In this document: one piece after another, positions 1,233 through 53,016 of the stretch
Position numbering within the stretch: position 1 is the first letter of the stretch
How the letters are laid out: every line of letters starts with the position of its first letter
Assembly (NCBI GenBank): GCA_036141575.1
Contig: JAYZXF010000017.1
Coordinates: 78,077 to 142,076 of the forward strand
Origin: Pseudomonadota bacterium
GTDB taxonomy: Bacteria; Pseudomonadota; Alphaproteobacteria; UBA2136; JAPKEQ01
Reading direction: 5' to 3'
DNA: 64,000 nt
The notes under the pieces: model-generated
Told to the model about the DNA's origin: nothing
What the model saw: only the letters and a program-made list of their open reading frames with translations
The model's database searches: none
Position numbers and translations under genes: made by a program

Positions 1233-1667
1233 TTATCCTTCTGTTTTGTGCATCTTTTGAGTGATGCTATCTTTCAGAAGTTTGTAAATTTCAGCAACCA
1301 TGCGAATGCTGATCTTTTGGTCATCAGAGCGATTGTCATTATCGCTGATGATATCTGCGCTATTTTGCCAGTGCATATGGGTTTTGCTGGTTTCATGGAG
1401 CATGCTGGCCACATCTGCGCGTTTGATTTCAAAAATAGGCGCAACGTCCAGCGGATCGCCACCTGAGAGCAAGTAAACCTCAAGGGTTTGTCTGAGTGTC
1501 AGCATGGCAGCCGCAGCGTTGGCTTGATTGCTTTCATTGCCATATTTATGGCGCCAAAGCACACGCATCAGGTCTGTTGCGCGGCGCCTTTCAATATGCA
1601 TATGCAGAGAGTTGAGCATAATTGTGGGTTGAGTCATTGGAAAGTCCGTACAATGAGGAAACGTCAA
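1233..1667 (-). CDS. hypothetical protein (start may be the internal Met 'MTQPTIML' near 1637)
   Basis: 144-aa ORF at the 3' end of the minus-strand cluster. Confidence 0.45.
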   Translation of the reverse strand: MTFPHCTDFPMTQPTIMLNSLHMHIERRRATDLMRVLWRHKYGNESNQANAAAAMLTLRQTLEVYLLSGGDPLDVAPIFEIKRADVASMLHETSKTHMHWQNSADIISDNDNRSDDQKISIRMVAEIYKLLKDSITQKMHKTEG

Positions 1668-1774
1668 AAGAGATGTGGTGTGGGCTGAATGTAACGGCCT
1701 TTGGCTCTTGCAGCAACTTCTTTTCCTGAAAACAAAATCACCCCACGTAAAACGCAGGGTGAAAAATCGATTTT

Positions 1775-2488
1775 TTAAGGGTAGATCTGATCTCTGAAAT
1801 ATTCACGAACAATCGAGACAATTTCAGCTTTCAGGTTCCAGTAGGACTTAACCTGCGGATTGCTTTCTGCCTCTGCATGTGCACGGCAATTGCGAACCAG
1901 ATCCAGCAAGTTTGTCAGCAGTTCATTCGGCGTATCGCCAGGAACATTCATCATGTTCACCAGCTTTTCAGCGCTTCCTGCGGTGGAGATAAAGCTCTCT
2001 AGCCGTGAGCGAGCCTTCTTGAGGCTCCAAATACTGCCATCAATGTCCAGTTCAGGGTTATGACCATCCTCAAAGTGTCTGAGGAAGGTGGTCATGTATT
2101 GATCCTGCATCTGGGTGCTTTCAGGCTCTTTATCGGCATTCTCATCAAAGATGGTAATGGTAAAGCCAAGCACCATACCCAGATCCACAAGGTCTTGGAT
2201 AATGGTATTGCACACCTTCAGGTTTTGCGTATCGCCCATATAGGCAAGTGCCATTTGCTTTTCCAGCATCAGGCTGAGAGAACCATACAGAAAATTCACA
2301 GCATCAGGGTCACCAGCAAACGGGTTGGTTTCGCCTTTTTCATGGCTTGCGACCAGTGTGTCCAGCGCCTTTCTTGCAGATTGGCGTTTCAAGGACGCGG
2401 TACCCATTTGATCGTGGTAGAACTCTATGGCAGCATCGCCAAGGCGTTCAAAAACCAAGTTTGTCAGTTCAAAGAGGTTTTGAGACAT
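1775..2488 (-). CDS. hypothetical protein
   Basis: 237-aa ORF with no recognisable motif. Lies on the same strand as the RuBisCO-like cluster. Confidence 0.5.
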   Translation of the reverse strand: MSQNLFELTNLVFERLGDAAIEFYHDQMGTASLKRQSARKALDTLVASHEKGETNPFAGDPDAVNFLYGSLSLMLEKQMALAYMGDTQNLKVCNTIIQDLVDLGMVLGFTITIFDENADKEPESTQMQDQYMTTFLRHFEDGHNPELDIDGSIWSLKKARSRLESFISTAGSAEKLVNMMNVPGDTPNELLTNLLDLVRNCRAHAEAESNPQVKSYWNLKAEIVSIVREYFRDQIYP

Positions 2489-2499
2489 CTGAAAACCTT

Positions 2500-2889
2500 T
2501 CAGGAAGGATCAAAGATAGAGGAAAGGCGGCATGATTCATCATAGTAATCACACAGCTTTTTAAAGAAGCTTAGCAGCTTGTTATAGAGAGACTCGCCAC
2601 AGGTTCCCGGAGGGGGGAGCACTTTGAGTGTTTCACCAATCACTTGGACCATAAGCCCGATGCGTTCAATGTTGGTTCGGAACTCATCGTCTTTTTCAAA
2701 CATATGCTCAAACGCAGGATGTTTGGCTTTCAGTGCAAGCGCTTTATCCATTTTTACAATGGCCAAGTCCAGTTTCAAGCTCGCAACGCTAAAATCCTCA
2801 GCTTTGATGAGGGTGAGTGACTCTCCCCAGAGTTCAATAGACTCTGCAGCAATAGCCATAATGTCAGTGGTTGACATGGTGGGCCTCAT
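2500..2889 (-). CDS. hypothetical protein
   Basis: 129-aa ORF. Only an 11-nt gap to the 1775-2488 gene, suggesting co-transcription. Confidence 0.5.
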   Translation of the reverse strand: MRPTMSTTDIMAIAAESIELWGESLTLIKAEDFSVASLKLDLAIVKMDKALALKAKHPAFEHMFEKDDEFRTNIERIGLMVQVIGETLKVLPPPGTCGESLYNKLLSFFKKLCDYYDESCRLSSIFDPS

Positions 2890-2999
2890 AAGTTGGAGAA
2901 AAAGAAAAACAGATATTGAATAAAGCCACCCTACGAGTGGAAAATGTATACGTCAAATGAAAAGCAGCCCTTGAAAAAGGGCTGCTTCGAAAAATCGAT

Positions 3000-3422
3000 T
3001 TATTTGCCTCCAGGGTTCAGCAGACCAGTCAGAAAGTTTTCAAAAATTTTCTGTTGTTGGGCCACATAGGCCTGAGCCAGCATGCCGGCCATCACAGACA
3101 TGTTCTTCAGCTGCTGCAGTTGTGCAGAACCGAGGCCATTGGCTTTGACGGTTTTTTCGAAGTCTTCAGCGAACTCGTTCACAGCGGCTTTGGCTTCTTC
3201 AAACATTTCCAGTGGCGAACGCGGACCTTGCGCCAGAGCTTTCATCAGCTCAAGGAAGTCAACATCGTCACGCTTCAGATACTCTTCCAGCAGAGCAATC
3301 AGCTCTTCTGAGGTGGTATTGGCGGCTTCAAATTCGCCTTCGCTACCATGTTCCGTCATGCGGCGGGTTGTCTCTTGAATAGCTTCCAAAAGCTCTTCAT
3401 TTGTGCGGGTATCAGTCATCAA
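3000..3422 (-). CDS. hypothetical acidic helical protein
   Basis: 140-aa ORF, Glu/Ala-rich. Similar in size and composition to the neighbouring 3482-3895 ORF. Confidence 0.5.
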   Translation of the reverse strand: MMTDTRTNEELLEAIQETTRRMTEHGSEGEFEAANTTSEELIALLEEYLKRDDVDFLELMKALAQGPRSPLEMFEEAKAAVNEFAEDFEKTVKANGLGSAQLQQLKNMSVMAGMLAQAYVAQQQKIFENFLTGLLNPGGK

Positions 3423-3481
3423 ACTCTCCAGTCAATGGGGTGAGGGAAACAGGCTCTTACTTGTTAAGAGCCTGAACAGAT

Positions 3482-3895
3482 TTAGCCAATGCCGTTGGCT
3501 TCCAGGAAGGCGTCGTAGTATTTGGCGCGCTCTTCAAACAGGGCTTTGGTCAAAATCACAAGCAGCTGCATGGTGCTATTAACCACCTGCAGTTCAGCTT
3601 CGCCAGCTTCGCCTCTGGCCTGCAGTTTTGCTTTTTCTTCTGCATATTCTGGCAGGAGGTATTCCAGCTGTTGCAGAACCTCAAAAGCTTCACCACTGAA
3701 AACGGTTTGTGCAAGGTTCGAGACGGTGGTATTGGGCAGAGCTACATACTCCTGACAAAGTGCAACCAAATTGGCCAGAGGCTCAATTGCGCCAGCATCA
3801 TCGTCGCGTTCTGCAGCAGCCATCATATTGGAGGCTTCCACTTGAATTTTTGCCATCAGCAGTTCAGGGGATTGTTCAGACATAAGAATCTCCAT
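3482..3895 (-). CDS. hypothetical acidic helical protein
   Basis: 137-aa ORF. Probable paralog or partner of 3000-3422. Confidence 0.5.
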   Translation of the reverse strand: MEILMSEQSPELLMAKIQVEASNMMAAAERDDDAGAIEPLANLVALCQEYVALPNTTVSNLAQTVFSGEAFEVLQQLEYLLPEYAEEKAKLQARGEAGEAELQVVNSTMQLLVILTKALFEERAKYYDAFLEANGIG

Positions 3896-4029
3896 TGTCT
3901 AAAAAAAGGGAAGGGTGATAGATCAAAATCACCCCTGTTGTATACGCCAAGGTGTTGCATTGTCAAACTTAAATGGGAAATGAAAAACAAAAAAGCTCCC
4001 CAAATTGGGAAGCTTTGCTTTCGAGTGAT

Positions 4030-4263
4030 TTAGAAGGACTGGCCAATGGCTTTGGAAAGCGTGATGGTGTTTTCAGTCTGCTGCTGGATGAGTGCTGCAG
4101 CCAGCTTGGCTGGTGGCGTTGGTGCAAAGTTCACCATCAGGGCACTGCATTGACGCATAGGCGTAAAAACAAGTTGTTCTTGCGCTTGCCGTGTTACGTT
4201 GGCGTAAGCCTGCGTGTAAGTATGCATGGCTTGAAGAGTACCCAAAGGCGTAAATAGAGTCAT
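4030..4263 (-). CDS. small hypothetical protein
   Basis: 77-aa ORF inside the cluster. Weakly supported. Confidence 0.3.
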   Translation of the reverse strand: MTLFTPLGTLQAMHTYTQAYANVTRQAQEQLVFTPMRQCSALMVNFAPTPPAKLAAALIQQQTENTITLSKAIGQSF

Positions 4264-4380
4264 AGAACCTCTCTGTAAAACGGTATGGTGGGTTGTTAGG
4301 AGCGCAGAAAGTAGGGGAAAGCAGGAGATCTGTCAATATATAAAAACAGCCCCCTTGCGAGAGCTGTCTTTGATTTCGAT

Positions 4381-4959
4381 TTAACCGAGGCCTTGGCCTT
4401 CTTCTGGCCAGAGGCGTGCACTGGCGCGGTCGCAGTTGCCAACATGGGCTGCAAGCGGGCAAGAGACACGGTGGGTGTTGGTGTAATCATCACCTTCACC
4501 ATGGGTATATTTCAACGCGTTCCACTCATTATCAGTCAGTTCAAAATCATAAGTTTTCATGAGCTCAAGAATGATACGCTTCTTAATGAATTCCCAATAT
4601 TTTGGAACAACATGTTGAAGCTCTGTATGCCAGTGTGCCACGCGCGGATCAGTAGGGTCTGCAAATTTGAAGATCTTCTCAATGTCATGGAAGAAAAACG
4701 TAACCGCAGCACTGCCTTTGGTAAAAGGCAGTGGACGAATCTGTTCCATGCCGTCATAGGTCACATCGTTAATGCGAAGGCCTTCTGCAATATGGTCTGC
4801 ATAGCCGCCAGGCCAAGCTTGGTGGTTATGGGTAGAGCCTGGAGCAGTATGGAAGAGGTCGTGGAAATCACGGTAAATTTGCAAGAGGACATTCTGGCGC
4901 GGATCATTGATCTGCTGAATGAGCCCTTTAAGCTTTGTGTCTAACAGAGACATAAGCAT
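4381..4959 (-). CDS. hypothetical protein with a His-rich motif, possibly an HD-type phosphohydrolase
   Basis: Motifs 'STHNHQAWPGGYADH' and 'FFFHDIEK' (H...HD pattern). The call is tentative. Confidence 0.45.
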   Translation of the reverse strand: MLMSLLDTKLKGLIQQINDPRQNVLLQIYRDFHDLFHTAPGSTHNHQAWPGGYADHIAEGLRINDVTYDGMEQIRPLPFTKGSAAVTFFFHDIEKIFKFADPTDPRVAHWHTELQHVVPKYWEFIKKRIILELMKTYDFELTDNEWNALKYTHGEGDDYTNTHRVSCPLAAHVGNCDRASARLWPEEGQGLG

Positions 4960-5107
4960 CTCCTTGTATAAAACGTGTTCAAAGATTGAAGAGTTCTTTT
5001 TTTATATCGTGGCTTTAAACATGTGGCAATGAAAAAGCCCCTTTATAGGAAGGGGCTTTATCTCGATTTAGCAGTACTGCGTATGGTCTCCTAAGGTAAG
5101 GGTGGGG

Positions 5108-5461
5108 TTAGCCGCGGGCCAGCTCAAGGAACGTGCGCATGGCTTCTGCCAGCGGGTTCAAACCAATCAGAGCACCAGGGTTCTCAGTTTTGGTTCTTTC
5201 AATCAGATCCTCAAGGCCTTTCAGGCCTTTTTCGCCGGTTGCCAAGGCATGTGCTGGCATACCAATCATAGTGGCAATCTCTTCAGCGCTCACTTCACCG
5301 CGGACAATCATGTTTTTCACTTCGGAAAACAGGCCAAGGGCGGCTTCTGCAGTTGCAGTGAGCATAGCAAGATTATCGGCTTTGAGTGCTTTACTGGCTT
5401 CACGTACAGCCATTTGGGCTGCACCAAGAAAGTTTTCAGCTTTAGCAAGATTCATATTCAT
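5108..5461 (-). CDS. hypothetical helical protein
   Basis: 117-aa ORF. A terminator-like hairpin lies downstream at about 5037-5060. Confidence 0.45.
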   Translation of the reverse strand: MNMNLAKAENFLGAAQMAVREASKALKADNLAMLTATAEAALGLFSEVKNMIVRGEVSAEEIATMIGMPAHALATGEKGLKGLEDLIERTKTENPGALIGLNPLAEAMRTFLELARG

Positions 5462-5636
5462 AGGAATATCTCCTGAGAAAAAAGGAAAAAGAAACAGATT
5501 TATAAAACAGAGCTGACCCTACGGGGCAGAGTCGTATACGTCAAGCGTAATGCTGAAACTTGAAGATGATCAAAATAATACCCAGCCATATAGGCTGGGT
5601 ATTTCAAGCTTAAGCTTTATTCCAAGAGATATGAAG

Positions 5637-5951
5637 TTAGTTCATTTCCAGTGGAATTTTCACAAGGAAGCTCTGACCGTATGTTTTCTTCTTCGGATCA
5701 AATCCGCTGAGTTTAACGTACGAGTACGGGAAGCGACGGCTGCAAGCATCAACCTGCGTCATCACCCAGCTCGCGCTGACTTCTTTGTGCTCTGGAATTG
5801 GCCAGATTTTCCAGTACACCTCTTCAGGTGTTGGTGCATCTGAGAACTCAATCATTGGCACTTGGCCTTCTGCAAGCATGTTTTGTGCTTGCATGTGCAC
5901 TTGGTTACTCGTCAGAGGCGGTAGGAATGAAAATGTTTCAAAACGTCTCAT
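5637..5951 (-). CDS. RuBisCO small-subunit-like protein (divergent RbcS/CbbS homolog)
   Basis: 'ETFSFLPPLTSNQV...IEF...YWKIWPIP...VKLSGFD' aligns with RbcS 'ETLSYLPPLTTDQ...LEF...YWTMWKLP...IRIIGFD'. Located 15 nt downstream of the large-subunit-like gene. Confidence 0.8.
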   Translation of the reverse strand: MRRFETFSFLPPLTSNQVHMQAQNMLAEGQVPMIEFSDAPTPEEVYWKIWPIPEHKEVSASWVMTQVDACSRRFPYSYVKLSGFDPKKKTYGQSFLVKIPLEMN

Positions 5952-5966
5952 TGTTTTTATCCTTTC

Positions 5967-7670
5967 TTAGTCATCCAAACCTGGACGAGTGTCATCAGTT
6001 ACGGGTTTCAGTGGGGTTACAACTTTTGGCGCTGTTGTTGTTTCTTCAATCTTAGCACCTGTTGCTGCGTCACCTTTCACAACACCAAACAGGAAGGCTC
6101 CTTCGTTCCAGAATTCTAGAGCGGCTTTCAGTTCGCTGTTGTAGCGGGCTGCACGTTGTAGAATTGTACGACCGTCAACACTTAGGTTATGACCTTCACC
6201 ACGGGCTTGTGCAATGGCTTCAATCGCCGTACGGCAAGCTGTTGCACCGCTGCCTAGGCCCCAAGGGTGACCCATTACTGATCCACCACACTGGATGATC
6301 ATGTCATCGCCCATTGCGTCCATCAGGCGAGGGAAGTGCCATGGGTTGTGTCCACCACCCACAGCAGGCCATACAGTGGCACCACCTACAGAGGGTTGGT
6401 CAAACATGATACCTGTTTCAACAGATGTTTTTGGTGCATCTTCAACAAGCATATCAACAATACCTTTCACGTGACGGCGGTTACCCGTATCACCACGCAG
6501 TGGACTACCGATACTTACCATGTCACAACCTGTGAAGCGAAGAAGCTTCGCAATCAGGCCTTCTGTCATTGTTGCGCTCATGAGGCTACGTCCGCCCATG
6601 GCACCAATAATCACATCGTTGTTCTGACACCAGTTCACCATGCTTGCAAGAGCACTCCAGCCGACAGCAGAGCTATCAACAATCATCATGTTGATGCCAA
6701 GCTCTTTTGCATATTCTGCACGAGCTGTCATATCTTCAACTGTTGGGGCACTAATGTTCACAGCGTGGTATTTCACTTCGCCCGTTTCTTGCTGTGCAGC
6801 AAAGGCAGCTTCAGCCACAAAACGGAAGCGACGGCGCCAGCTATTGTCTGGCAGGCTGTGCATCATGGTTGGGTCGGCAGTCATATCTACACCGCCTTTA
6901 AGTGTTTCGTACACCGCACGGCCGTACATCTTAGGTGATAGGCCGTTCATTGGGCGCATTGTGCTACTTAGCAGTGGGCGACCGTACTTGCTGGCAAGGT
7001 CACGCATACCAATCACACCGTATGAAGGTGTTTTAAATGTACGTGCAAGCCCAACAGGAATGCGGGCATCAACAATACGTGCACCTGTAGATGTAATAGG
7101 GGCACTGATCACGCTAATAAGGCTGACCATAGAGCCTGCTTCTACCATTTCTTGTGGGATGATCAGGCTTACGTTAACTGTAGAGCTATCTACGCGCTTT
7201 GTTTCAAGCAGTTTTACTTGTGGCACTGTCTCGTGGTCTACAAGAGAACCTGTCCAGCTTTCCACCCAGTCACCGTTTGCTGCGCTTACAAGAAGGTTAC
7301 CGCATTCGTTTTGGCTGAATGTTGTGTTCTCGTACTGGTAGCTAACAAGGATGTCTTGTTCTGGGTTAAAGCCTTGGTCTTCCTTACGGCGACCACGTGA
7401 GTCTGGCTTTTCATCAGTCGTTGGGGCTGCTACGGCTGCAAATGATGTCGTGCCGCCTGTTAGGCTGTCTAGCGATACACCAAGAACCGTGGCGATTTTA
7501 ACCACGTTATCTAGAGAAGGGCTTACTTGTCCGCCAAGGATGCGTGAGAGCGTTGCCATCGACACACCAGACTGGCGAGACAGGTCAGATGCAGACATGC
7601 CGTTCTTTTCCAAAATCTTTTTTAGAGCCTCAGGTAGGTTGTAAGGGCTCTCTGTTGTTTTCTTTGTCAT
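5967..7670 (-). CDS. fusion protein: N-terminal XRE-family HTH domain plus RuBisCO large-subunit-like domain, with carboxylase active-site residues substituted (the ORF could alternatively start at 7715)
   Basis: HTH_3-like segment 'SASDLSRQSGVSMATLSRILGGQVSPSLDNVVKIATVLGVSLDSL'. RbcL-like blocks 'DILVSYQ', 'KYGRPLLSSTMRPMNG', 'YGRAVYETLKGGVDMTADP', 'GGGHNPWHFP', 'QCGGSVMGHPWG'. SD 'AAGGA' lies 7 nt before the ATG at 7668-7670. Confidence 0.85.
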   Translation of the reverse strand: MTKKTTESPYNLPEALKKILEKNGMSASDLSRQSGVSMATLSRILGGQVSPSLDNVVKIATVLGVSLDSLTGGTTSFAAVAAPTTDEKPDSRGRRKEDQGFNPEQDILVSYQYENTTFSQNECGNLLVSAANGDWVESWTGSLVDHETVPQVKLLETKRVDSSTVNVSLIIPQEMVEAGSMVSLISVISAPITSTGARIVDARIPVGLARTFKTPSYGVIGMRDLASKYGRPLLSSTMRPMNGLSPKMYGRAVYETLKGGVDMTADPTMMHSLPDNSWRRRFRFVAEAAFAAQQETGEVKYHAVNISAPTVEDMTARAEYAKELGINMMIVDSSAVGWSALASMVNWCQNNDVIIGAMGGRSLMSATMTEGLIAKLLRFTGCDMVSIGSPLRGDTGNRRHVKGIVDMLVEDAPKTSVETGIMFDQPSVGGATVWPAVGGGHNPWHFPRLMDAMGDDMIIQCGGSVMGHPWGLGSGATACRTAIEAIAQARGEGHNLSVDGRTILQRAARYNSELKAALEFWNEGAFLFGVVKGDAATGAKIEETTTAPKVVTPLKPVTDDTRPGLDD

Positions 7671-7684
7671 TAAATTTTCCTTAT

Positions 7685-7702
7685 ATGGTAGCGAGCTACC
7701 AT
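7685..7702. promoter_or_regulatory. perfect 18-bp palindrome ATGGTAGCGAGCTACCAT immediately upstream of the RBS of the HTH-RuBisCO-like gene; candidate operator
   Basis: Read directly: the halves atggtagcg and cgctaccat are exact reverse complements. Confidence 0.5.
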
Positions 7703-7916
7703 TACGGTTATTCATTTACCTATTAAATGTAGTATCGCACAGGCTGTGCTTTTGCACAAATGGAAATATTGCAGATGTGGAAGAATTTCAAGGGCTGAAA
7801 TCAAAAAAATATCAAAAAAATAAAGGTGACTTTGTTTTTGTTGACAAATTAAAGGTGGATTGTATGCTGCCCTGCAACATTTATCTTCTCTTTCTTTTTC
7901 TAGGAGTACTTAATCA

Positions 7917-8769: not shown

Positions 8770-9582
8770 ATGAGACACACAGTATGGATTGCGTCGTTGG
8801 CGCTTTTGTGTGCAGTAAATGCGCAAGCTTCAGAAGGAATTGCAAGGCAAATTCAGTCTCTTAAAACAGCAATGGATGGGTTTGCAGCAACTGCAAGAGC
8901 GCAAATTGCGTCCAATACAGCGAGTATTACTGAAAACGTAAGAATTATTGACTCTTTTGAGACCTGTGCTGAAAGCGGGATGATGTATGCCCCTGATGAT
9001 GTGACAGCGAATGCAGATGGCTGTAAGCGCGTCACCTCAACACAAGCGCTCAATGAAATTGATGTGTCAAGCCAGCTTGTGGCAACAGGCCGGTGGCTAC
9101 ACCCTTATAACTTTAGTGAGCATTCATCAAATGGGTCTCCATCAAAACGTGGCCGTTCTTATGCGCAGATTTATCGTATTAATGATCCTGATAATTATAA
9201 CAACTACCTGATTTCTGGTAATCTTTTTGGTGGTGGTAGTCGTTCTCATGATGAGGGTCAGTTCAGTTGTTGGAATGCTAATACTTATGTAAAGATTGGT
9301 AGTGGTTGGGTTTCTACAAACGGTGATTCTATTAAAATTGAACAGCTTGCCAATGTGTCTAAAACGCGTGTGGCAGGCCATGTTTATAATGGCACATTCC
9401 AAAACCAAATTGCGATTGTAAAGCGTACATCTCATAGCTGTTATAATAACGGAGGGGATTTAAATATGGGAATGAAGGTTAATTACATTACGTATCACAA
9501 TGGTATGAATGCACGTGCATCTTATCATGATAGTGACTCGCGAGCTTCAACACTGCGTGTGACAAACATTATTGGTTTTTAA
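8770..9582 (+). CDS. secreted protein, member A of the 'EG-ARQ' family
   Basis: Signal peptide, then 'SEGIARQIQSLKTAMDGF', then the two-Cys loop 'FETCAESGMMYAPDD...DGC'. Paralog of 12161-13015. Confidence 0.7.
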   Translation: MRHTVWIASLALLCAVNAQASEGIARQIQSLKTAMDGFAATARAQIASNTASITENVRIIDSFETCAESGMMYAPDDVTANADGCKRVTSTQALNEIDVSSQLVATGRWLHPYNFSEHSSNGSPSKRGRSYAQIYRINDPDNYNNYLISGNLFGGGSRSHDEGQFSCWNANTYVKIGSGWVSTNGDSIKIEQLANVSKTRVAGHVYNGTFQNQIAIVKRTSHSCYNNGGDLNMGMKVNYITYHNGMNARASYHDSDSRASTLRVTNIIGF

Positions 9583-10942: not shown

Positions 10943-11998
10943 CTAGAGGAAACGCACGTCGTTGCGATGGAAGTAACGGGTTAGACCGAGACTTGCGCCC
11001 ATCCCAACAAGGAAAAGCATGACCAGAGCCCATGTTGGTGGGTTGATCTGGGATTTGAGGTAGGCAAACTGTTTCATCTGTGGGCGTACAAAGTGTGCGT
11101 CCACCTCTTCGGAGATGGCGTGCACAATTGCATGCGGGTCAGAAATAGTGCCAATGTTTTGAAGTTCATCACGCAGATACACTGCCATTTCTTCGTTGCC
11201 GTATCCGCCAGCCCAAGTGAGCACATGGGCCCAATTGATAGTGTCGGTTGCGTCAACACTCAGAATAACCACCACATCATTCTTGTTGAGACCATCCCAT
11301 GCGGCTTCAACTTTGAAGACATATTCACGGGATTTCTCTGTGGTGATGATCAGGTTCACGTTGGCCTGTTTACTTGGGCCAAGGTGAATCAGTTCCTGAT
11401 TCAGCAGATCTTGCCAGTGGTCAGCATCTTTCAAGCTGAAGCCTGAAGTCAGCACCCGGTGTGCACGGTAGTAGTCGAACACGCGTGGGTACTCAGGCAC
11501 GTCGGCCAGATGCTCATAGTCCAGCATTTGCGTTTTGTAGAGGCTGCCGTTGGCGGCCTGTACGTAGTTATCATAGGTGTGCTCAGTTGCAGCAGGTTCA
11601 CCAATAACCACTTCCGTGAAACGGGGTGGCTCTTTGGTTCCCTGACGGTTGATACGCCGAATGTTGAAGTCGCCAACATTGGTGTAAACACGCCAGTCAT
11701 AGTCGTGAGAGTGCTCATAGCATGTTTGGCAGGTCTGTTTACCGTCTTTGTCGGTGACACAATTGCATTGGTAGCTGTGTTCGCAGGAAACGCGAACACG
11801 CTTTTTGTCTGCAATTGAGCCGTTCCAAATTTCGGTATCAGCCATCATGCCTTTTTCGGTCAGCTTGTAGCCGCCAAAAACCAGCGCTGTCACGAGAACG
11901 AGCTGCATGAGGATTTCTTGCCAGTTCAGGTCATACTTCAATGCTTTTGCAATGAGAGGTGTGAGAAGGGGCAAGAGAAGAAGCCATGCAAGATACAT
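10943..11998 (-). CDS. hypothetical membrane protein with a Cys-rich extracytoplasmic segment
   Basis: N-terminal and C-terminal hydrophobic helices. Cys-rich stretch 'SCEHSYQCNCVTDKDGKQTCQTCYEH'. Confidence 0.55.
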   Translation of the reverse strand: MYLAWLLLLPLLTPLIAKALKYDLNWQEILMQLVLVTALVFGGYKLTEKGMMADTEIWNGSIADKKRVRVSCEHSYQCNCVTDKDGKQTCQTCYEHSHDYDWRVYTNVGDFNIRRINRQGTKEPPRFTEVVIGEPAATEHTYDNYVQAANGSLYKTQMLDYEHLADVPEYPRVFDYYRAHRVLTSGFSLKDADHWQDLLNQELIHLGPSKQANVNLIITTEKSREYVFKVEAAWDGLNKNDVVVILSVDATDTINWAHVLTWAGGYGNEEMAVYLRDELQNIGTISDPHAIVHAISEEVDAHFVRPQMKQFAYLKSQINPPTWALVMLFLVGMGASLGLTRYFHRNDVRFL

Positions 11999-12160
11999 GT
12001 GTTTTCTCCTTAAAATGTACGAAAGATTACAGTAGTGATGAAATTGTGATCATCCCTTTAATGAAATTCAAGGTTTTGGGTGTTTTTTTTAGGAGATATG
12101 AGCTTGTGTGTTAACCTATAAGAGAAAGCAGGGTTATAAAAAAGAGGGGTCCCTTACAAA

Positions 12161-13015
12161 GTGAGGCATATGCTTAAAGTATCAGCATTAACTGCTGTGT
12201 GTGTGATTGGAATCGTGAATTATGTGCAAGCGAGTGAAGGAATTGCTCGTCAAGTACAAGCCTTAAAGTCCTCTATGGATAGTTTTGCTGCGACTGCTCG
12301 TGCTCAGCTTGCTGCTCAGGCGGTAAGCATTACAGAGAATGTACGTATGATTGACGCTTTTAAAACCTGTGCAGATAAAAACATGCTGTATACGCCTGAA
12401 AATCAGGCGGCAGATGTGGATGGCTGTTCTGCGATGTCTGGCTCTGGGGAAGTAAATGAAATTGATATGGCAACAGAGGTTGTGCCAACAAACCAATATT
12501 TTAATGTGGAACATGGCAGGGAGCAAACTGGAGGCGGTGGAGTAACTCGTGGCTCTCCTGCACGTATCTATCAGATTAATGACTCTGGAAATTATCAAAC
12601 ATATCAAGTTGTCGGTAATATCCGAGGCTGGGGTTGGCAATGGGATGATGAAGATCATGCTTATGACCATTGTTATGCTTATCAGCCTTATGTGAAAATT
12701 GGCGGGAGATGGCATGTCTCTGACTCTGATACTGTGACAATCCGTACTGTTGCAAACCAAAATAAAACCATTCTAAATGGCCGTATGGTGAATGGAAGTT
12801 TTGATAAAAGAATAGCTGTTGCTAAAGGAACAGCTTTCAGATGTGGTCGTCGTGGGGATACAAATGCTTTATATCAGATTTTTAATGATATGCGTAAGAG
12901 CCATGTGACTTGGTCTGATGCTTTAGCTTCTGGTCAAAGGGCTTGTTCTCATCATGACCCTCTTAATTGCAGAAATAGTGCATCGCTTGGTATACACTAT
13001 ATTGTTGGCTATTAA
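12161..13015 (+). CDS. secreted protein, member B of the 'EG-ARQ' family
   Basis: Signal peptide, then 'SEGIARQVQALKSSMDSF', then 'FKTCADKNMLYTPEN...DGC'. Shares 'IY(R/Q)IND..NY' and 'YVKIG' blocks with member A. Confidence 0.7.
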   Translation: MRHMLKVSALTAVCVIGIVNYVQASEGIARQVQALKSSMDSFAATARAQLAAQAVSITENVRMIDAFKTCADKNMLYTPENQAADVDGCSAMSGSGEVNEIDMATEVVPTNQYFNVEHGREQTGGGGVTRGSPARIYQINDSGNYQTYQVVGNIRGWGWQWDDEDHAYDHCYAYQPYVKIGGRWHVSDSDTVTIRTVANQNKTILNGRMVNGSFDKRIAVAKGTAFRCGRRGDTNALYQIFNDMRKSHVTWSDALASGQRACSHHDPLNCRNSASLGIHYIVGY

Positions 13016-13114
13016 GTTAAAAATTAAAAAAGAACTACCCAATTTTAAAAAACGCCTTTAGGTTAGAGATATCTTAAATCTTCTTTAATGTTTCCTAACT
13101 GACGAGGCGTTATC

Positions 13115-14146
13115 ATGCGCTATACAGTTCCTGCTGGGCGCAATGAAGCGCCCTATGCCCTATGGCATGAAAAAAGCATACAGGCGCGAAGCTGGTATTT
13201 AGCTTTAGGTATGATGTATCCCGTGATTATATGTATTGCCCTTGGGCTGCATGGCGGGGTAGGAACCTTTATGAGTGCCATTTTCTACGCAGTCTTGCTT
13301 TTTGGTGTTTCTCGCTTTCAAGCCTATAAAACGGTGCGCTCAGCACCTGAAGAATTTGCGCGTAAGGCTATTCCTGAAACCTCACCTCAATATCGTCAGG
13401 CTCTCCTTATGATTGAGGAGCTTTGCCAGCGTGCAGGTGTGGATTGGAGGCCTCAGCTTATTGTGTTTGAAAGTGAAGGCTTTGACGGTTTTGCAAGCCA
13501 TCCCCCTGGACGGGACCCCTATATTATCCTGAGTACAGGTGCTTTTCTTTATGGGAAGAGAAGTGTACGTGCTGTGATCGCTCATGAGCTGTCTCATATG
13601 CTGCACGGGGATATGACCCTTGTTGAGAGGGCAACCATCCTGCATATGGTGACAATGGCTATGCTTGCTCTTATTTTGTCTGTTCCAATGGCTATGGCTG
13701 GTGGAGAGTCTGCTGACAGTGTTTTCTTTCTTGTGTTTTTATTGGGGTTTACCTTCATCTATTTACGTGGATTGAAGATTGCGCTCAATACGCACTCACG
13801 CTACCGAGAGTATTTGGCTGATGGTGGTGCTGCCGCTTTAATTGGCTGGGAAAACCGTATGGATATGGCGGTTGCACTGCACTGGACTTTTGTTGCCTTT
13901 AAAGAGCTTCTGAAAAAGAAGGTGAGGCAAGGGCAGCTCTACAAAGATTTCCGTCACCCTCAAACTGGGGCACCCCCTAGAGAAGGATGGCTTGAAGACA
14001 TGCAACAAAAAGCGCTGGATGCGATTGATGAAATGGAGGAAACCTCTTCCATTATGAATACGCACCCAACCAATAAAGAGCGCTATGCTGCGCTCGATAT
14101 TACCGAAGACGAGCTGAAGCAAGCTCTTGAGGATCATGCGCTATAA
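13115..14146 (+). CDS. M48-family zinc metalloprotease (HtpX-like), membrane-associated
   Basis: HExxH motif 'VIAHELSHMLHGD' plus multiple TM segments. Confidence 0.75.
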   Translation: MRYTVPAGRNEAPYALWHEKSIQARSWYLALGMMYPVIICIALGLHGGVGTFMSAIFYAVLLFGVSRFQAYKTVRSAPEEFARKAIPETSPQYRQALLMIEELCQRAGVDWRPQLIVFESEGFDGFASHPPGRDPYIILSTGAFLYGKRSVRAVIAHELSHMLHGDMTLVERATILHMVTMAMLALILSVPMAMAGGESADSVFFLVFLLGFTFIYLRGLKIALNTHSRYREYLADGGAAALIGWENRMDMAVALHWTFVAFKELLKKKVRQGQLYKDFRHPQTGAPPREGWLEDMQQKALDAIDEMEETSSIMNTHPTNKERYAALDITEDELKQALEDHAL

Positions 14147-14149
14147 AAA

Positions 14150-14185
14150 ATCGAGAAGCCCCCTGTGTTGGGGGCTTTTTATTTG
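14150..14185 (+). terminator. rho-independent terminator 'gaagcccccTGTGTTgggggctttttatttg'
   Basis: G/C stem followed by a T-run after the M48 gene. Confidence 0.7.
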
Positions 14186-14326
14186 CGCGCTGCTGAAGTT
14201 TTTTTTAAATAGTTTTTTTCATTGAAAGGTATAGAGCGGCTCTGTAAAGTTGACGCATTCTATAGAAAATATGTCTTCCGTTTTCTTATCCTTGATCTGA
14301 GGTGTTTCTATTTTTGTGAGGTCATT

Positions 14327-14827
14327 ATGCTTAAGACCTGTCTGCGCGGCTTTTTGCTGCTCTCTTTTCTTGTTCTGTCTGCTTGTGCCGTCGCTATTCC
14401 TGAAGAAGACTGGTATATCACTCTTGCCAAACGCAATACACAAAACGGTGTTGTTACCATTACTGAAGATGATGGTGGGCTGGTTTATCCGCGTATTCAT
14501 TACATTGAAAATGTGATTGAGGCCCGTAACCAAAGTGTACGTATTATTGCACCTGAATGCATTTCGGCTTGTACGATGTATCTTGGGGTCAGCAATGTGT
14601 GCACTGCGCCTTATACTCGCTTTATGTTCCATGGCCCTTGGGATAGTTCAGTAGCTAACTATACTGAAACGCCTGCATTTCAGCATACGTCACGTGCCAT
14701 TGCACGTTACTATCCAGCGCCTATCCGTAGAGCCTTTATGAAAAGTTATCGTCATTTGGGACCCTATGAGTTTCATACAATTACGGGCGAAGAGCTTATT
14801 GCCGCAGGGCATATAAGAGCCTGCTAG
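14327..14827 (+). CDS. putative lipoprotein (the ORF track starts upstream at 14222)
   Basis: 'MLKTCLRGFLLLSFLVLSAC' with a lipobox-like LSAC. Terminator hairpin at 14848-14872. Confidence 0.5.
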   Translation: MLKTCLRGFLLLSFLVLSACAVAIPEEDWYITLAKRNTQNGVVTITEDDGGLVYPRIHYIENVIEARNQSVRIIAPECISACTMYLGVSNVCTAPYTRFMFHGPWDSSVANYTETPAFQHTSRAIARYYPAPIRRAFMKSYRHLGPYEFHTITGEELIAAGHIRAC

Positions 14828-17055: not shown

Positions 17056-17577
17056 TTATTTTCCGCGCACGTGAATGATGCGGATAATGGATGTGTCGCT
17101 CAGATCAGAGACATCGCCAAGCGACATGACTTGGCGCCGAATGAGGTTTCGAAGAAGTTCTTCTTCTTTATAGCTCACATCAATGAAAGGGTTGTGGCTG
17201 CTTCCAGCTTTGAAAAAAGTGCCGCCATATTGGTTGTCTTTGAGGGCAATATAAAAATATTTATGAGTCGCCGATTTCAAAAACTTCATTTCTTCAGATG
17301 TAAAGGGCACCAGTTCAATGCCGTTGTCCTTAGATTTTTCTGCCATGGCTTGCATGTAGCTTTTACCCTCTACCACACGGCAGATATTGGGTTTAAGTGC
17401 GCTATAGCCAGCGTTAATGACATCGCACAGTGCTTGCCACTCTCTCGGCGGAATGGGTTTAAGTTCATCGCCTTTGTGGGCATCGCGGTAATAACCGTGC
17501 TCTTCATTCACAAAGTAGAAACGCTGATGCGTATAAATGCGGGCGTAAACCAAAAGGGCGTCGTTGTTGAGTCGTTT
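17056..17577 (-). CDS. hypothetical protein, tandem paralog 1 (EWQxLC family; ORF extends to 17655)
   Basis: 'PIPPREWQALCDVI' and 'EEELLRNLIRRQVMSLG' are shared with the next two genes. Confidence 0.55.
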   Translation of the reverse strand, partial: KRLNNDALLVYARIYTHQRFYFVNEEHGYYRDAHKGDELKPIPPREWQALCDVINAGYSALKPNICRVVEGKSYMQAMAEKSKDNGIELVPFTSEEMKFLKSATHKYFYIALKDNQYGGTFFKAGSSHNPFIDVSYKEEELLRNLIRRQVMSLGDVSDLSDTSIIRIIHVRGK

Positions 17578-17667
17578 CATGGAGAGGCTCCAGAGAAAAA
17601 GAAAATCAAAGATATGAGTTGCCTTATTTTTACAAGGAGTAGAGAGGCTTGGCAAGGTGTTTCCTGC

Positions 17668-17700
17668 AAAACAAAACAGCCCCGAAGGGCTGTTTAGGTT
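17668..17700 (-). terminator. terminator hairpin 'aacagccccGAAgggctgtt'
   Basis: Perfect stem downstream of paralog 2. Confidence 0.6.
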
Positions 17701-17703
17701 CGT

Positions 17704-18276
17704 TTATTGGTCCCAGTAGACCCGCTGGTGCGGTTCTTGGCTCCAATAGTCTTCAAATGTGCCACCTGTATGGAGCAGGCCACGTTTGACGAGCTGCTGA
17801 ATGCCTTGTATCTCTGTGGGAGAAAGCTGGCTTTCGCGACGGCGAGGGGAACCTTCCTCTACCTCATAAAACCAGTGATAAATGCCCGTTTCCGGCTGAA
17901 AAATGAGAGCGCTTGCTTCACGGTGCTGAATGGCACGCAGAAGAGGAATCACGTTCTGTTCTTCTTTGCTGAAGGCGCGAGGGGTCACAAATGGTTCAGG
18001 GTTTGCGTGGATATAGTTCCCCAAAATAACCTGAAAAAGGGGCAGGCCTTCTACGTAACGGCCTTTTGTTGAGAGGGTTGTGAGTGCGTTACAAGCAAAG
18101 GCTTCGCACAGCACTTGCCAGTCTCGCAGGCTAATAGCAGGCAGTTTGGATTCACCAAGATGACCCTGCTTTTTAGGCTGGTTGATGTAAACGCCATGTG
18201 AGACTGTGATGAAGAATTGAACATCCATCTCATGGATGCGCTTCACCATTTCAGCAACCGCTTGAGATTGAGACAT
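17704..18276 (-). CDS. hypothetical protein, tandem paralog 2 (EWQxLC family; ORF extends to 18396)
   Basis: 'ISLRDWQVLCEAF' and 'TEIQGIQQLVKRGLLHTGG'. The likely start 'MSQSQAVAEMV' places the 18365-18380 hairpin in the intergenic region. Confidence 0.55.
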   Translation of the reverse strand: MSQSQAVAEMVKRIHEMDVQFFITVSHGVYINQPKKQGHLGESKLPAISLRDWQVLCEAFACNALTTLSTKGRYVEGLPLFQVILGNYIHANPEPFVTPRAFSKEEQNVIPLLRAIQHREASALIFQPETGIYHWFYEVEEGSPRRRESQLSPTEIQGIQQLVKRGLLHTGGTFEDYWSQEPHQRVYWDQ

Positions 18277-18357
18277 GTGAGATCCTTTCAGAAAAGGGAG
18301 GGAGATGTAAGATGTTGGGATTGTATTCAGTTTGGTGGTGTTATGCAAGTACACAAA

Positions 18358-18388
18358 TGAAAAACAGCCCCGAAGGGCTGGTAATAAT
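18358..18388 (-). terminator. terminator hairpin 'cagccccGAAgggctg' after paralog 3
   Basis: Same hairpin type as at 17675. Confidence 0.55.
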
Positions 18389-18392
18389 CGCT

Positions 18393-19121
18393 TCAATCAT
18401 CTGCCGTCCAGAACGAAAAGATGCTCTGAGCTTCGAGGTGATAGTAAGGGGTCTTTTCACCAAGGGTGACAACGCCTTTATCAATCAGGCTTTGTAGAAT
18501 GACCATTTCATTCTCATCAAAGTCAAGCTCAACGCCCCAGTCGCCTGCAAACCAAACACCATGGTAGGGTTTGTTGTCTCTCCATTTATGGATCAGGCAG
18601 CAGGCATTCATATGCTCTGATGTAGAGTAAGCGTCATGGTCTTCCATGAGGTGAGAGGTGTCTTCGCCTGCATCCTCTGCGGCGTAGTACTCCTTAATGC
18701 ACCCCCGCTTAACATGCTGACCAGCAGGGAAGTGCCGTACGCGCGGGCCTGCGCCTGTCATGGCTTTAAGGAGCATGATCTCATCATTGCTGAGAGCTGT
18801 TGGCGAGGCTGGAGGCGGCGTTTCGGGCCTGTCGAGCGCGGACGCCTCAAGAATTTGATAGAATGTGGCGCCTTGCTCTTTCATGAGGCTAAGCTTCCAG
18901 TTACTATTTAAATGGGCGCGACCATCAGAGATGATTTTGCAGAGAAACTGCCACTCTTCAAGTGTAACGGGGAGTAGGTCGTCTTCATTGACGGGCACAT
19001 TTTCTTGGGTGTTCTGTGCAGCAAGTTTATATGCTCTTGTGTCTGACACAAAGTAGTAGCACAGCTGTTTTTCAATGCTGGCAACAATGTACTCTTCAAG
19101 GGCGATGCCTGAAAGTTTCAT
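18393..19121 (-). CDS. hypothetical protein, tandem paralog 3 (EWQxLC family)
   Basis: 'VTLEEWQFLCKII' and 'ENEMVILQSLIDKGVVTLGEK'. Confidence 0.55.
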   Translation of the reverse strand: MKLSGIALEEYIVASIEKQLCYYFVSDTRAYKLAAQNTQENVPVNEDDLLPVTLEEWQFLCKIISDGRAHLNSNWKLSLMKEQGATFYQILEASALDRPETPPPASPTALSNDEIMLLKAMTGAGPRVRHFPAGQHVKRGCIKEYYAAEDAGEDTSHLMEDHDAYSTSEHMNACCLIHKWRDNKPYHGVWFAGDWGVELDFDENEMVILQSLIDKGVVTLGEKTPYYHLEAQSIFSFWTADD

Positions 19122-52951: not shown

Positions 52952-53016
52952 ACAACTGACAGGCGGAAACATTAATAAAACCGCTTATAAGAACTTAAGG
53001 AAAGTAAAACATTAAC

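Follow-up and report, generated by a model that had tools for sequence, protein, structure and literature searches.

A pseudo-RuBisCO fused to an XRE-type helix-turn-helix domain: a likely self-regulating transcription factor of an uncultured alphaproteobacterial lineage

The operon and the layout of the fusion protein

Two adjacent minus-strand genes in the window (the whole stretch of DNA analysed here, 64,000 nucleotides in length) encode, respectively, a fusion of an XRE-type helix-turn-helix (HTH) domain with a RuBisCO large-subunit-like (RbcL-like) body, and a RuBisCO small-subunit-like (RbcS-like) protein. The features of the locus are listed below, with domain residues numbered along the longest open reading frame of the first gene (582 aa; 5967–7715, minus strand).

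5967–7670, minus strand: HTH/RbcL-like fusion gene, 567 aa from M16 (reading frame, translation, gene callers, family alignment, Pfam, NCBIfam)
7464–7625, minus strand: XRE-type HTH_3 DNA-binding domain, residues 31–84 (Pfam, AF2)
7356–7457, minus strand: variable, disordered linker of Ala, Pro, Thr and charged residues, residues 87–120
6081–7355, minus strand: RbcL-like body, N-domain and TIM barrel, residues 121–545, with the carboxylase and Mg residues all replaced
5970–6080, minus strand: C-terminal extension, residues 546–582 (AF2, tail comparison over 89 members)
5637–5951, minus strand: RbcS-like gene, 104 aa (Pfam RuBisCO_small, PDB RbcS)
5577–5603, minus strand: predicted intrinsic terminator closing the two-gene operon, an 11-bp stem followed by a T-rich tail (terminator scan)
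7769–7782, no strand: operator-like palindrome 1, TTCCACATCTGCAA, 112 nt upstream of the ATG
7752–7765, no strand: operator-like palindrome 2, TTCCATTTGTGCAA, 95 nt upstream of the ATG and 17 bp from palindrome 1
7685–7702, no strand: previously noted palindrome ATGGTAGC-TC-GCTACCAT, in the 5' leader, immediately ahead of the ribosome-binding site

The longest reading frame is open throughout, without interruption. Because both the gene callers and the family alignment begin at M16, the fusion gene is taken to be 5967–7670, and an AAGGA ribosome-binding site can be read 7 nt upstream of its ATG. An HTH domain, a linker and a complete RbcL fold within one frame had been proposed by a sequence-only reading of this DNA, and the reading frame, Pfam, NCBIfam and the AF2 model all bear this out. 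The possibility that a frameshift had merged separate HTH and RuBisCO genes can be set aside, as the fusion is never split among the aligned members.

The HTH_3 match (E = 4e-13; 49.5 bits, cut-off 23) has HigA, HipB and SinR as its nearest PDB sequences, and in the AF2 model the domain comprises five helices over residues 27–86, with block-mean pLDDT of 85–96 over residues 31–80. Its recognition helix, S-M-A-T-L-S-R-I-L, shows nearly no variation across the family, and S52, S57, R58 and P66 vary little or not at all. The AF2 monomer model combines this confident HTH with a confident RbcL body, separated by a disordered linker (pLDDT below 50 for residues 88–113) that has the highest column entropy within the fusion protein (3.18 bits). 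The C-terminal extension is likewise modelled with pLDDT below 50; it carries a short hydrophobic-Thr-Pro-Leu/Phe element and an acidic end, and it is absent from the clade without RbcS (89 members compared).

The identity of the body is supported by several profiles and by structure. From the three Pfam domains that had been expected, HTH_3 and RuBisCO_large (residues 234–536, E = 3.5e-62) were recovered, and RuBisCO_large_N gave no Pfam match on the window's fusion protein; the N-domain is seen by other means, being covered by the NCBIfam rbcL model (PRK04208, residues 118–545, 303.8 bits, under the cut-off of 438) and by PDB RbcL alignments, with PF02788 matching in many homologs. NCBIfam ranks rbcL (304 bits) above form III (180 bits) and MtnW (102 bits), the matches to MtnW and OiaX being partial. 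The best PDB sequence matches are form I RbcL proteins (phmmer E = 7e-88), and Foldseek aligns the AF2 model to form I RbcL with TM of 0.85–0.90 at 34–36% identity.

Loss of catalytic residues and conservation of the remodelled pocket

All of the catalytic substitutions listed in the sequence-only reading hold when the protein is aligned to PDB form I RbcL by HMMER and by MAFFT. TIKPKLG has become TMRPMNG, replacing K175 by R and K177 by M, and DFTKDDE has become DMTADPT in the window protein. H294 is replaced by G or M, according to the alignment used, H327 by S and K334 by G. Across 16 members, K201 is replaced by A, C or F, D203 by P (A in one of the 16) and E204 by T, V or S. Taken together, K175, K177, K201, D203, E204, H294, H327 and K334 are replaced in all 16, whereas form I controls keep every one of them. 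The structural glycine motifs GGGH and QCGG are present in the fusion protein, as had been noted, and T173 and the phosphate-binding glycines G380, G381 and G403 are also retained from RuBisCO. Furthermore, the phosphate-binding arginine R295 may persist as the invariant R376, since MAFFT pairs the two, while HMMER aligns R376 with H298.

On the barrel side, most of the new residues show no variation over the about 88 protein clusters of the family. R254, P282, T283, S401 and an S-P-L-R-G loop 6 are fixed in the family, G453 is invariant, and conservation is higher at the 20 active-site positions (mean entropy 0.71 bits) than in the remainder of the body (1.37 bits, P = 8e-4). The N-domain residues that complete the active site of RuBisCO (E60, T65 and N123) vary in the family, which makes a classical, closed pocket for a ligand harder to argue. 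Conserved positions identical to form I RbcL number 54, with glycine, proline and similar fold-type residues predominating among them.

The small-subunit gene and the transcription unit

The RbcS-like gene begins 15 nt past the large-subunit stop codon and has its own AAAGGA ribosome-binding site. Its product matches RuBisCO_small (E = 1e-25, 90 bits), finds its best PDB matches among cyanobacterial RbcS proteins (E = 2e-21) and conserves the RbcS motifs. Its relatives, about 95 clusters found on contigs with the fusion gene, constitute a family distinct from canonical RbcS. The predicted terminator downstream of the gene would make the operon a transcription unit of its own. The close pairing of the two genes, pointed out from the sequence alone, stands here and in 25 of 29 loci, in which the RbcS-like gene lies downstream of the large-subunit gene; it fails in sub-clade P0080–P0086, which has no RbcS gene beside the large-subunit gene and on whose contigs no RbcS-like gene was found. 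The small subunit is thus not indispensable, given that one clade does without it. The RbcS-like protein also gives a faint match to a CcmM model (E = 0.044).

Palindromes upstream of the fusion gene

A 14-bp palindrome, TTSCA-N4-TGSAA, has two exact matches in the 64-kb window, both at 7752–7782, upstream of the fusion gene. In 474 kb of sequence around 26 loci, 13 of the 15 exact matches fall within 150 bp upstream of the fusion gene (P = 8e-26), as do 28 of the 104 matches with one mismatch (P = 4e-34), and 20 of the 26 intergenic matches are upstream of that gene. With up to two mismatches allowed, the site is present at 25 of the 26 loci, usually as two copies 17–21 bp apart, and the near-invariant recognition helix goes in step with this conserved half-site. 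Searches for further targets were negative: beyond the gene's own promoter, one-mismatch matches in the window do not exceed expectation (14 observed, 16.7 expected), and no second recurrent target appears in the 474 kb of flanks. Moreover, no sigma-70-like promoter was found on the gene's strand in the intergenic region 7671–7916, and no Rfam family reached its gathering score within the window.

The palindrome at 7685–7702, earlier suggested as a binding site for the HTH domain, does exist. Its conservation is limited to the half-sites, shared with a single relative, L001, at 92% identity; it is not family-conserved, and the role of candidate operator passes to the TTSCA-N4-TGSAA sites at 7752–7782. 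As an RNA hairpin it was also rejected, showing no significant gain in stability over shuffled sequences (z = −1.56).

Distribution, neighbours and phylogeny

The sequence-only reading had named conservation of the HTH fusion and its synteny in relatives as a check, and the outcome is positive. The fusion is found in about 88 clusters at 90% identity, which are 42–99% identical, and at 29 genome loci, and 34 aligned family members share 64 invariant positions. All sequences come from metagenome-assembled genomes (MAGs) or metagenomes, and the family is confined to one uncultured lineage of Alphaproteobacteria; its contigs reach 1.78 Mb in length and stem from many independent studies. An L13 search returned matches from uncultured lineages only, several of them on contigs with the fusion gene, and no cultured relative.

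At other loci the neighbours are housekeeping genes, named by reading their sequences as dnaE, lolCD, proS, glmM, ftsH and tilS, and in the window the operon is flanked by open reading frames without Pfam matches. No Calvin–Benson–Bassham (CBB), carboxysome or chaperone genes lie near the operon in the window or at the other loci, and no CBB genes were found anywhere in the 64 kb. Unrelated genes of the window encode a class I aldolase, PntAB, a two-partner secretion system, SurA and a DEAD helicase. An origin in defence systems or mobile elements was rejected: PADLOC gave generic HTH matches only, with none for the RbcS-like gene or the neighbours, and no relatives of the family were found among 2.9 million viral contigs.

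A neighbour-joining tree recovers the family as one clade, with catalytic form I as its sister group (94% bootstrap support). The family stands apart from all other superfamily representatives of the tree, in which the non-form-I sequences are not individually labelled. A RuBisCO phylogeny, which the sequence-only reading had called for, therefore places these proteins beside form I and not among the RuBisCO-like proteins (RLPs).

A proposed function and its alternatives

The loss of the CO2-fixing residues, the added HTH domain and the conserved candidate operator together make the protein look like a self-regulating transcription factor. We consider it probable that the operon encodes a RuBisCO-derived, autoregulated one-component regulator of the XRE type, in which the pseudo-RuBisCO L and S subunits would serve as a sensor and oligomerisation module. 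A RuBisCO-derived transcription factor or pseudoenzyme had already been suspected from the sequence, and the suspicion gains support from the family-wide operator-like palindrome and from the conserved, substituted pocket residues. In the mechanism that we propose, an HTH dimer would bind TTSCA-N4-TGSAA ahead of its own gene, usually at two sites, and would thereby autoregulate the operon, most likely by repression; it may conceivably act on targets beyond the operon as well. The RbcL-like body, judged by its residues, would have lost Mg2+ binding, carbamylation and the ability to enolise a substrate. With the co-translated RbcS-like protein as partner, this body could act as a scaffold, dimeric or of higher order, on which the HTH domains are brought together in pairs. 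The remodelled, strongly conserved pocket of the barrel is probably the binding site of a small molecule, anionic and possibly phosphorylated, that would modulate the binding of DNA. A more specific version, to which we commit ourselves only tentatively, is that a form I descendant has kept its small subunit, presumably in an L2 or L8S8 assembly, and has been turned into a multivalent metabolite-sensing transcription factor that is a lineage-wide core gene of the clade.

Other readings share parts of this evidence. The dead large subunit, with or without S, might be purely a scaffold, a ligand-free dimer or hexadecamer that multimerises HTH domains for cooperative tandem binding or for DNA bridging. 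Such a structural role would suit the mostly fold-type character of the positions shared with form I, the spacing of the tandem candidate operators fits a multivalent binder, the pocket residues supplied by the N-domain of the partner subunit are variable, and the RbcS-like partner, whose counterpart in RuBisCO is a subunit of assembly and stability, has been retained. However, the substituted positions of the barrel pocket rank with the most conserved of the whole protein (R254, P282, S401, G453 and the new loop 6 do not vary), and since a functionless pocket is hard to reconcile with invariant residues, we regard a pure scaffold as rather unlikely. A trigger enzyme, for which PutA and BirA are precedents in coupling an enzyme to transcription, would make use of the pocket: a new, Mg-independent reaction would proceed through R254, H286, S401, H456, C476 and R413/R414, with the HTH domain linking occupancy to transcription. 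Polar, potentially catalytic residues are indeed fixed across the family, and it is generally known that the RuBisCO superfamily has diversified functionally in the RLPs, the fusion protein itself giving partial matches to the MtnW and OiaX models. Every RuBisCO or RLP chemistry known to us, however, relies on the carbamylated K201 together with the Mg2+ site, from which K201, D203 and E204 have all gone, and no pathway genes lie beside the operon at any locus, which leaves a trigger enzyme improbable.

It might also be asked whether some other regulator owns the upstream palindrome, the HTH domain being engaged in protein–protein contacts or at unrelated sites, so that the pair would be regulated and not regulating. 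The 5-N4-5 geometry of TTSCA-N4-TGSAA is indeed that of FNR/FixK boxes (TTGAT-N4-ATCAA), but its TTSCA/TGSAA core departs from their consensus, the recognition helix is conserved in parallel with the motif, and the motif is almost confined to the region upstream of the fusion gene in 474 kb, as is typical for an autoregulated gene but not for the sites of a global regulator. We therefore judge a foreign owner of the site very unlikely. As for a decaying relic of a CO2-fixation operon, or an artefact of assembly or annotation that joined two genes, the lost catalytic residues and the restriction of all sequences to MAGs or metagenomes might seem to invite it; it is effectively refuted by the conservation data, namely the in-frame fusion, kept in about 88 clusters even where identity falls to 42%, and the 64 invariant positions among 34 members, and it is further opposed by long contigs from many independent studies and by the operon's own candidate operator, ribosome-binding sites and terminator.

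Comparison with known systems and significance

Like green-type (IA/IB) form I RuBisCO, the family has a two-domain RbcL fold and an adjacent gene for a short RbcS of cyanobacterial type; unlike form I, it has replaced its catalytic and Mg residues, rewritten loop 6 and acquired an N-terminal HTH domain with a linker and a C-terminal tail, and the window protein scores under the NCBIfam rbcL cut-off. Form IV RLPs (the MtnW/YkrW enolase, the Chlorobaculum RLP, OiaX) are superfamily proteins that do not carboxylate RuBP; they act as enzymes, as a rule with the K201/D203/E204 metal site intact and without a small subunit, and they make up a clade of their own. The present proteins would resemble them in being non-carboxylating, to judge from the lost residues, but differ in grouping with form I, in lacking the metal site, in having an RbcS-like partner at most loci and in carrying a DNA-binding domain.

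One-component regulators built on an enzyme fold are exemplified by MocR, GabR and PdxR, in which a GntR HTH is joined to an aminotransferase fold. Among XRE regulators, autoregulation through palindromes is common (PMC12565409), and the XRE-cupin regulators PuuR and PsdR combine an HTH with a sensing domain and are autoregulated through palindromes in their own promoters (PMC7901475, PMC10965056). The fusion protein shares with the MocR and XRE-cupin regulators an N-terminal HTH, a flexible linker, a large enzyme-derived domain with a putative dimerising and sensing role, and predicted own-promoter palindromes; it departs from them in using a RuBisCO L as the putative sensor fold and in having its S subunit separately encoded, a combination not known to us from any described regulator. 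A non-catalytic role for a RuBisCO subunit fold also has a precedent in the SSUL modules of CcmM, which are RbcS-like, act as linkers in beta-carboxysomes and bind active RuBisCO, whereas the RbcS-like protein described here is free-standing, of canonical length and paired with a dead large subunit, with no carboxysome genes nearby. The HTH–RbcL architecture was not described in the texts reached by full-text literature searches or in a 2025 preprint on rubisco diversity, a coverage of the literature that is incomplete; within that coverage, the earlier statement that no such protein had been described agrees with our searches.

To our knowledge, the RuBisCO superfamily has been known only as enzymes (carboxylases and, among RLPs, isomerases, enolases and decarboxylases), and the small subunit has been tied to form I carboxylation. 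A sister clade of form I that keeps L and S without the chemistry and adds a DNA-binding domain would widen the uses of the RuBisCO fold and would provide a natural test of the role of RbcS apart from the support of catalysis. On the regulator reading, RuBisCO would be added to the few enzyme folds known to serve one-component regulators as sensor modules, and the predicted operator makes that reading directly testable. If the more specific, metabolite-sensing version is true, it would be the first case of a RuBisCO holoenzyme with a non-enzymatic, DNA-binding function, and no earlier instance of RbcS being kept outside carbon fixation is known to us. In addition, IMG and NCBI annotate such genes as "ribulose-bisphosphate carboxylase large chain" or "small subunit", and with these labels marker-gene surveys could score heterotroph-like MAGs as CBB autotrophs.

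Gene pair and domain architecture

An open reading frame runs without interruption through 5967-7715 of the minus strand, and a 104-codon frame begins 15 nt after it. On near-identical public contigs, gene callers start the longer gene at its second Met, which also fits the family alignment and has an AAGGA ribosome-binding site 7 nt 5′ of the ATG. Since an intrinsic terminator follows the small gene, the two constitute their own transcription unit. Residues are numbered on the full 582-aa frame.

5967-7670, minus strand: HTH_3/RbcL-like fusion gene (large subunit, L), 567 aa
5637-5951, minus strand: RbcS-like gene (small subunit, S)
5577-5603: intrinsic terminator with an 11-bp stem, 3′ of the S gene

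The sequence-only reading had claimed a helix-turn-helix (HTH) domain and a RuBisCO large-subunit fold in a single protein, with an RbcS homolog 15 nt downstream, and Pfam bears out both. HTH_3 (residues 31-84, 49.5 bits, cut-off 23) and RuBisCO_large (residues 234-536, E = 3.5e-62) lie on one frame, and the S product matches RuBisCO_small with 90 bits. The full-length NCBIfam rbcL model covers residues 118-545 with 303.8 bits, falling short of the 438-bit cut-off; scores are far lower still for the form III, MtnW, form II and OiaX models. An AlphaFold2 model built from a 34-sequence family alignment (mean pLDDT 82) predicts a five-helix HTH at 27-86, a disordered linker at 88-113, a confident two-domain RbcL body at 121-540 and a disordered C-terminal tail at 545-582. 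The top Foldseek matches in the PDB are all form I RbcL (TM 0.85-0.90, target-normalised; 34-36% identity), and phmmer against PDB sequences gives E-values of 7e-88 to 5e-86 for ancestral-reconstruction form I and cyanobacterial RbcL. The best PDB match of the small protein is a cyanobacterial-type RbcS (E = 2e-21).

Family extent and phylogenetic position

Conservation of the fusion in relatives and its placement by phylogeny had been proposed as checks, and both now have an answer. A search of 5.8 billion proteins recovered about 88 clusters (90% identity) with the HTH plus RuBisCO_large architecture, 42-99% identical to the window protein; after a steep drop in score come ordinary RbcL sequences at 35-39% identity. 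A library clustered at 50% identity holds about six representatives of the family (610-839 bits), ahead of a form I RbcL with 353 bits. A neighbour-joining tree of 99 superfamily sequences (408 columns) finds the family monophyletic (100% bootstrap) and in a clade with form I (94%), apart from the form IV RuBisCO-like proteins (RLPs), so that an RLP identity was rejected. Catalytic form I makes a clade of its own without the family (100%), and the family joins neither the green-like nor the red-like subgroup alone. By this method, in which long-branch attraction is possible, the family comes out either as sister to catalytic form I or as an early branch that evolved fast. Its RbcS is short and of cyanobacterial type, which suggests that the family arose once the small subunit had already been acquired.

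An RbcS-like gene lies downstream of the L gene in 25 of 29 genome loci; at one locus (L028) three unrelated genes sit between them, and two sequences (L003, L011) end too early to be scored. The RbcS-like proteins retain the hallmark motifs ETFSYLPPL, YW..W and C....P, make up a separate family of about 95 clusters well apart from canonical RbcS, and share contigs with the large-subunit family. A clade of marine metagenome-assembled genomes (MAGs) labelled Magnetococcales (P0080-P0086, including loci L026 and L027) has no RbcS gene adjoining the L gene, and none was found on contigs of matching length. The same clade is without the distal C-terminal tail, in which a hydrophobic-Thr/Pro motif leads into an acidic end, and this joint absence hints that tail and S subunit are linked in some way.

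Databases give these proteins nothing but automatic names, among them 'RuBisCO large subunit C-terminal-like domain-containing protein' and 'helix-turn-helix domain-containing protein'. IMG wrongly calls L 'ribulose-bisphosphate carboxylase large chain' and its partner 'small chain', and NCBI names the latter 'ribulose bisphosphate carboxylase small subunit'. Carboxylase names on dead L and S genes could yield false calls of Calvin cycle (CBB) autotrophy in MAG surveys. Searches of the full-text literature and a recent rubisco-diversity preprint returned no HTH-RuBisCO fusion and no non-catalytic L+S pair. Other RuBisCO-superfamily fusions occur in public data: P0187 carries TIR_2 before RuBisCO_large_N and RuBisCO_large, P0179 and P0181 an IF-2B (ribose-1,5-bisphosphate-isomerase-like) domain before RuBisCO, and P0178 an APH phosphotransferase domain after it. 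Of these, it is above all the TIR fusion that may put the fold to another non-canonical use.

Loss of catalytic residues and remodelling of the pocket

Substitutions were read from HMMER alignments to PDB RbcL and a MAFFT alignment with ten catalytic form I sequences. Both uphold the residue-by-residue account of lost catalytic residues given by the sequence-only reading.

Form I active-site residues (spinach numbering) and their counterparts in the family
K175: R, invariant
K177: M/L/I
K201 (carbamylated): A/C/F
D203: P (A in 1/16 members)
E204: T/V/S
H294: G or M, depending on the alignment
H327: S, invariant
K334: G/E
S379: G
E60, T65, N123 (partner subunit's N-domain): variable

T173, W66, G380, G381 and G403 are kept, and the invariant R376 corresponds to R295 in the MAFFT alignment but stands opposite H298 in the HMMER alignment. 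To our knowledge, all RuBisCO and RLP chemistry needs the K201 carbamate and the Mg2+ site; as the family lacks these residues, carboxylation and enolisation are excluded, judging from the alignments.

An alignment of 34 members has 64 invariant positions. Well-conserved positions are identical to form I in 54 cases, and a further 19 are conserved in both groups yet different, mostly in the active-site region (K175R, D203P, E204T, N207H, H327S, T330S, V332L, K334G, S379G, I382H, H383N, F402C). The 20 classical active-site positions are more conserved than the whole RbcL-like body (mean entropy 0.71 vs 1.37 bits; Mann-Whitney P = 8e-4), and loop 6 is rewritten to a fixed motif, S-P-L-R-G. The pocket was therefore reshaped and has since been maintained by purifying selection; its decay was rejected.

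A conserved palindrome upstream of the operon

When the upstream regions of 26 orthologs were aligned by eye, a 14-bp palindrome, TTSCA-N4-TGSAA, recurred. Its only two exact matches in the 64-kb window lie in front of the fusion gene:

7752-7765: palindrome, 95 nt 5′ of the ATG
7769-7782: palindrome, 112 nt 5′ of the ATG, 17 bp from the other

Over the 26 loci (474 kb), the 150-bp regions upstream of the family gene make up 0.8% of the sequence and hold 13 of 15 exact matches (binomial P = 8e-26) and 28 of 104 one-mismatch matches (P = 4e-34). Matches in intergenic DNA number 26, of which 20 precede the family gene. When up to two mismatches are tolerated, a site is present at 25/26 loci, frequently as a pair spaced 17-21 bp apart. 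In step with the constant half-site, the recognition helix of the HTH (S-x-A-S/T-L-S-R-I-L) hardly varies. XRE regulators commonly control their own genes through palindromes (PMC12565409). The pattern seen here is what autoregulation by an XRE-type dimer would be expected to leave, and the conserved motif is a predicted operator. The sites of many orthologs fall at 15-50 nt from the start codon, a position suggestive of repression. A sigma-70 scan returned no promoter on the gene's strand in the upstream intergenic region; a hand-picked candidate, TTGTGC-N17-GATACT, agrees with the consensus at 7/12 positions. The palindrome noted earlier at 7685-7702 does exist, in the 5′ leader of the fusion gene, but what recurs is limited to its half-sites and to one 92%-identical relative; as RNA its stability is not unusual.

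Proposed function

The best-supported reading, which we consider probable, is a one-component, autoregulated transcription factor with a RuBisCO-derived L body and S. The body, together with S, would provide dimerisation or oligomerisation, and its conserved, anion-capable pocket probably binds an effector; anion binding is suggested by the retained P1 glycines and T173, the presence of R254 and the possible retention of R295. In RuBisCO, loop 6, the C-terminal strand and the partner's N-terminal segment become ordered on ligand binding. The family protein is extended at both ends, by the linker and HTH at the N-terminus and by the conserved tail at the C-terminus, and these additions would be a plausible coupling route. 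MocR/GabR and XRE-cupin regulators likewise use a co-opted enzyme fold as sensor and are similar in concept; an HTH-RuBisCO regulator would be without precedent in the RuBisCO field.

A ligand-free scaffold would share the oligomerising role of the body and would leave the extra conservation of the pocket to be explained otherwise; we hold it to be unlikely. A trigger enzyme would need new, Mg-independent chemistry, and we give this little credence. The palindrome could belong to a different regulator, which is improbable beside a recognition helix as constant as the half-site. A relic or artefact is effectively refuted by the conservation of the family.

Host and genomic context

Every carrier of the family is a MAG or metagenome contig; the labels read Alphaproteobacteria, Proteobacteria or Magnetococcales, and a few species labels are evidently wrong. 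Ribosomal protein L13 of the window likewise has its nearest relatives in uncultured bacteria, and several of these relatives are encoded on contigs that also bear the family gene (432,291, 517,983 and 505,967 nt), which suggests vertical inheritance in one deep uncultured lineage. At many loci the operon is flanked by dnaE-lolD-lolC-proS and glmM-ftsH-tilS-ybgF (names by sequence reading); the window ORFs around it have no Pfam matches. Neither CBB, carboxysome nor RuBisCO-chaperone genes were found in the window or loci, and searches gave no viral relatives and no defence-system signal. The rest of the window is ordinary chromosome, with L13/S9, class I aldolase, PntAB, SurA, a DEAD helicase and a two-partner secretion system:

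50849-57291, plus strand: ShlB/FhaC-type transporter (700 aa), then a 1424-aa TPS-domain exoprotein

One MAG, MFD03283_ilm_asm_bin13, holds two family members (L005 7536-9182, with 52% identity to the window protein, and L011 878-2434, with 49%), reflecting either two paralogs in some genomes or a mixed bin. Directly downstream of the operon terminator lie small same-strand ORFs (1233-5461, minus strand; 117-237 aa), mostly acidic and, by sequence reading, helical; those tested have no Pfam or PADLOC matches, and the run recurs, likewise unannotated, in the near-identical contigs L031 and L033 and is absent from more distant loci. Two paralogous predicted secreted proteins (8770-9582 and 12161-13015, plus strand), the former without a Pfam match, have a common N-terminal motif, ASEGIARQ(I/V)Q(S/A)LK. 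Three tandem ORFs of 199, 230 and 242 aa (17056-19121, minus strand) are paralog-like by eye, and L026 carries three tandem paralogs of 261-262 aa (11901-14523); these lineage-specific expansions are reminiscent of effector arrays.
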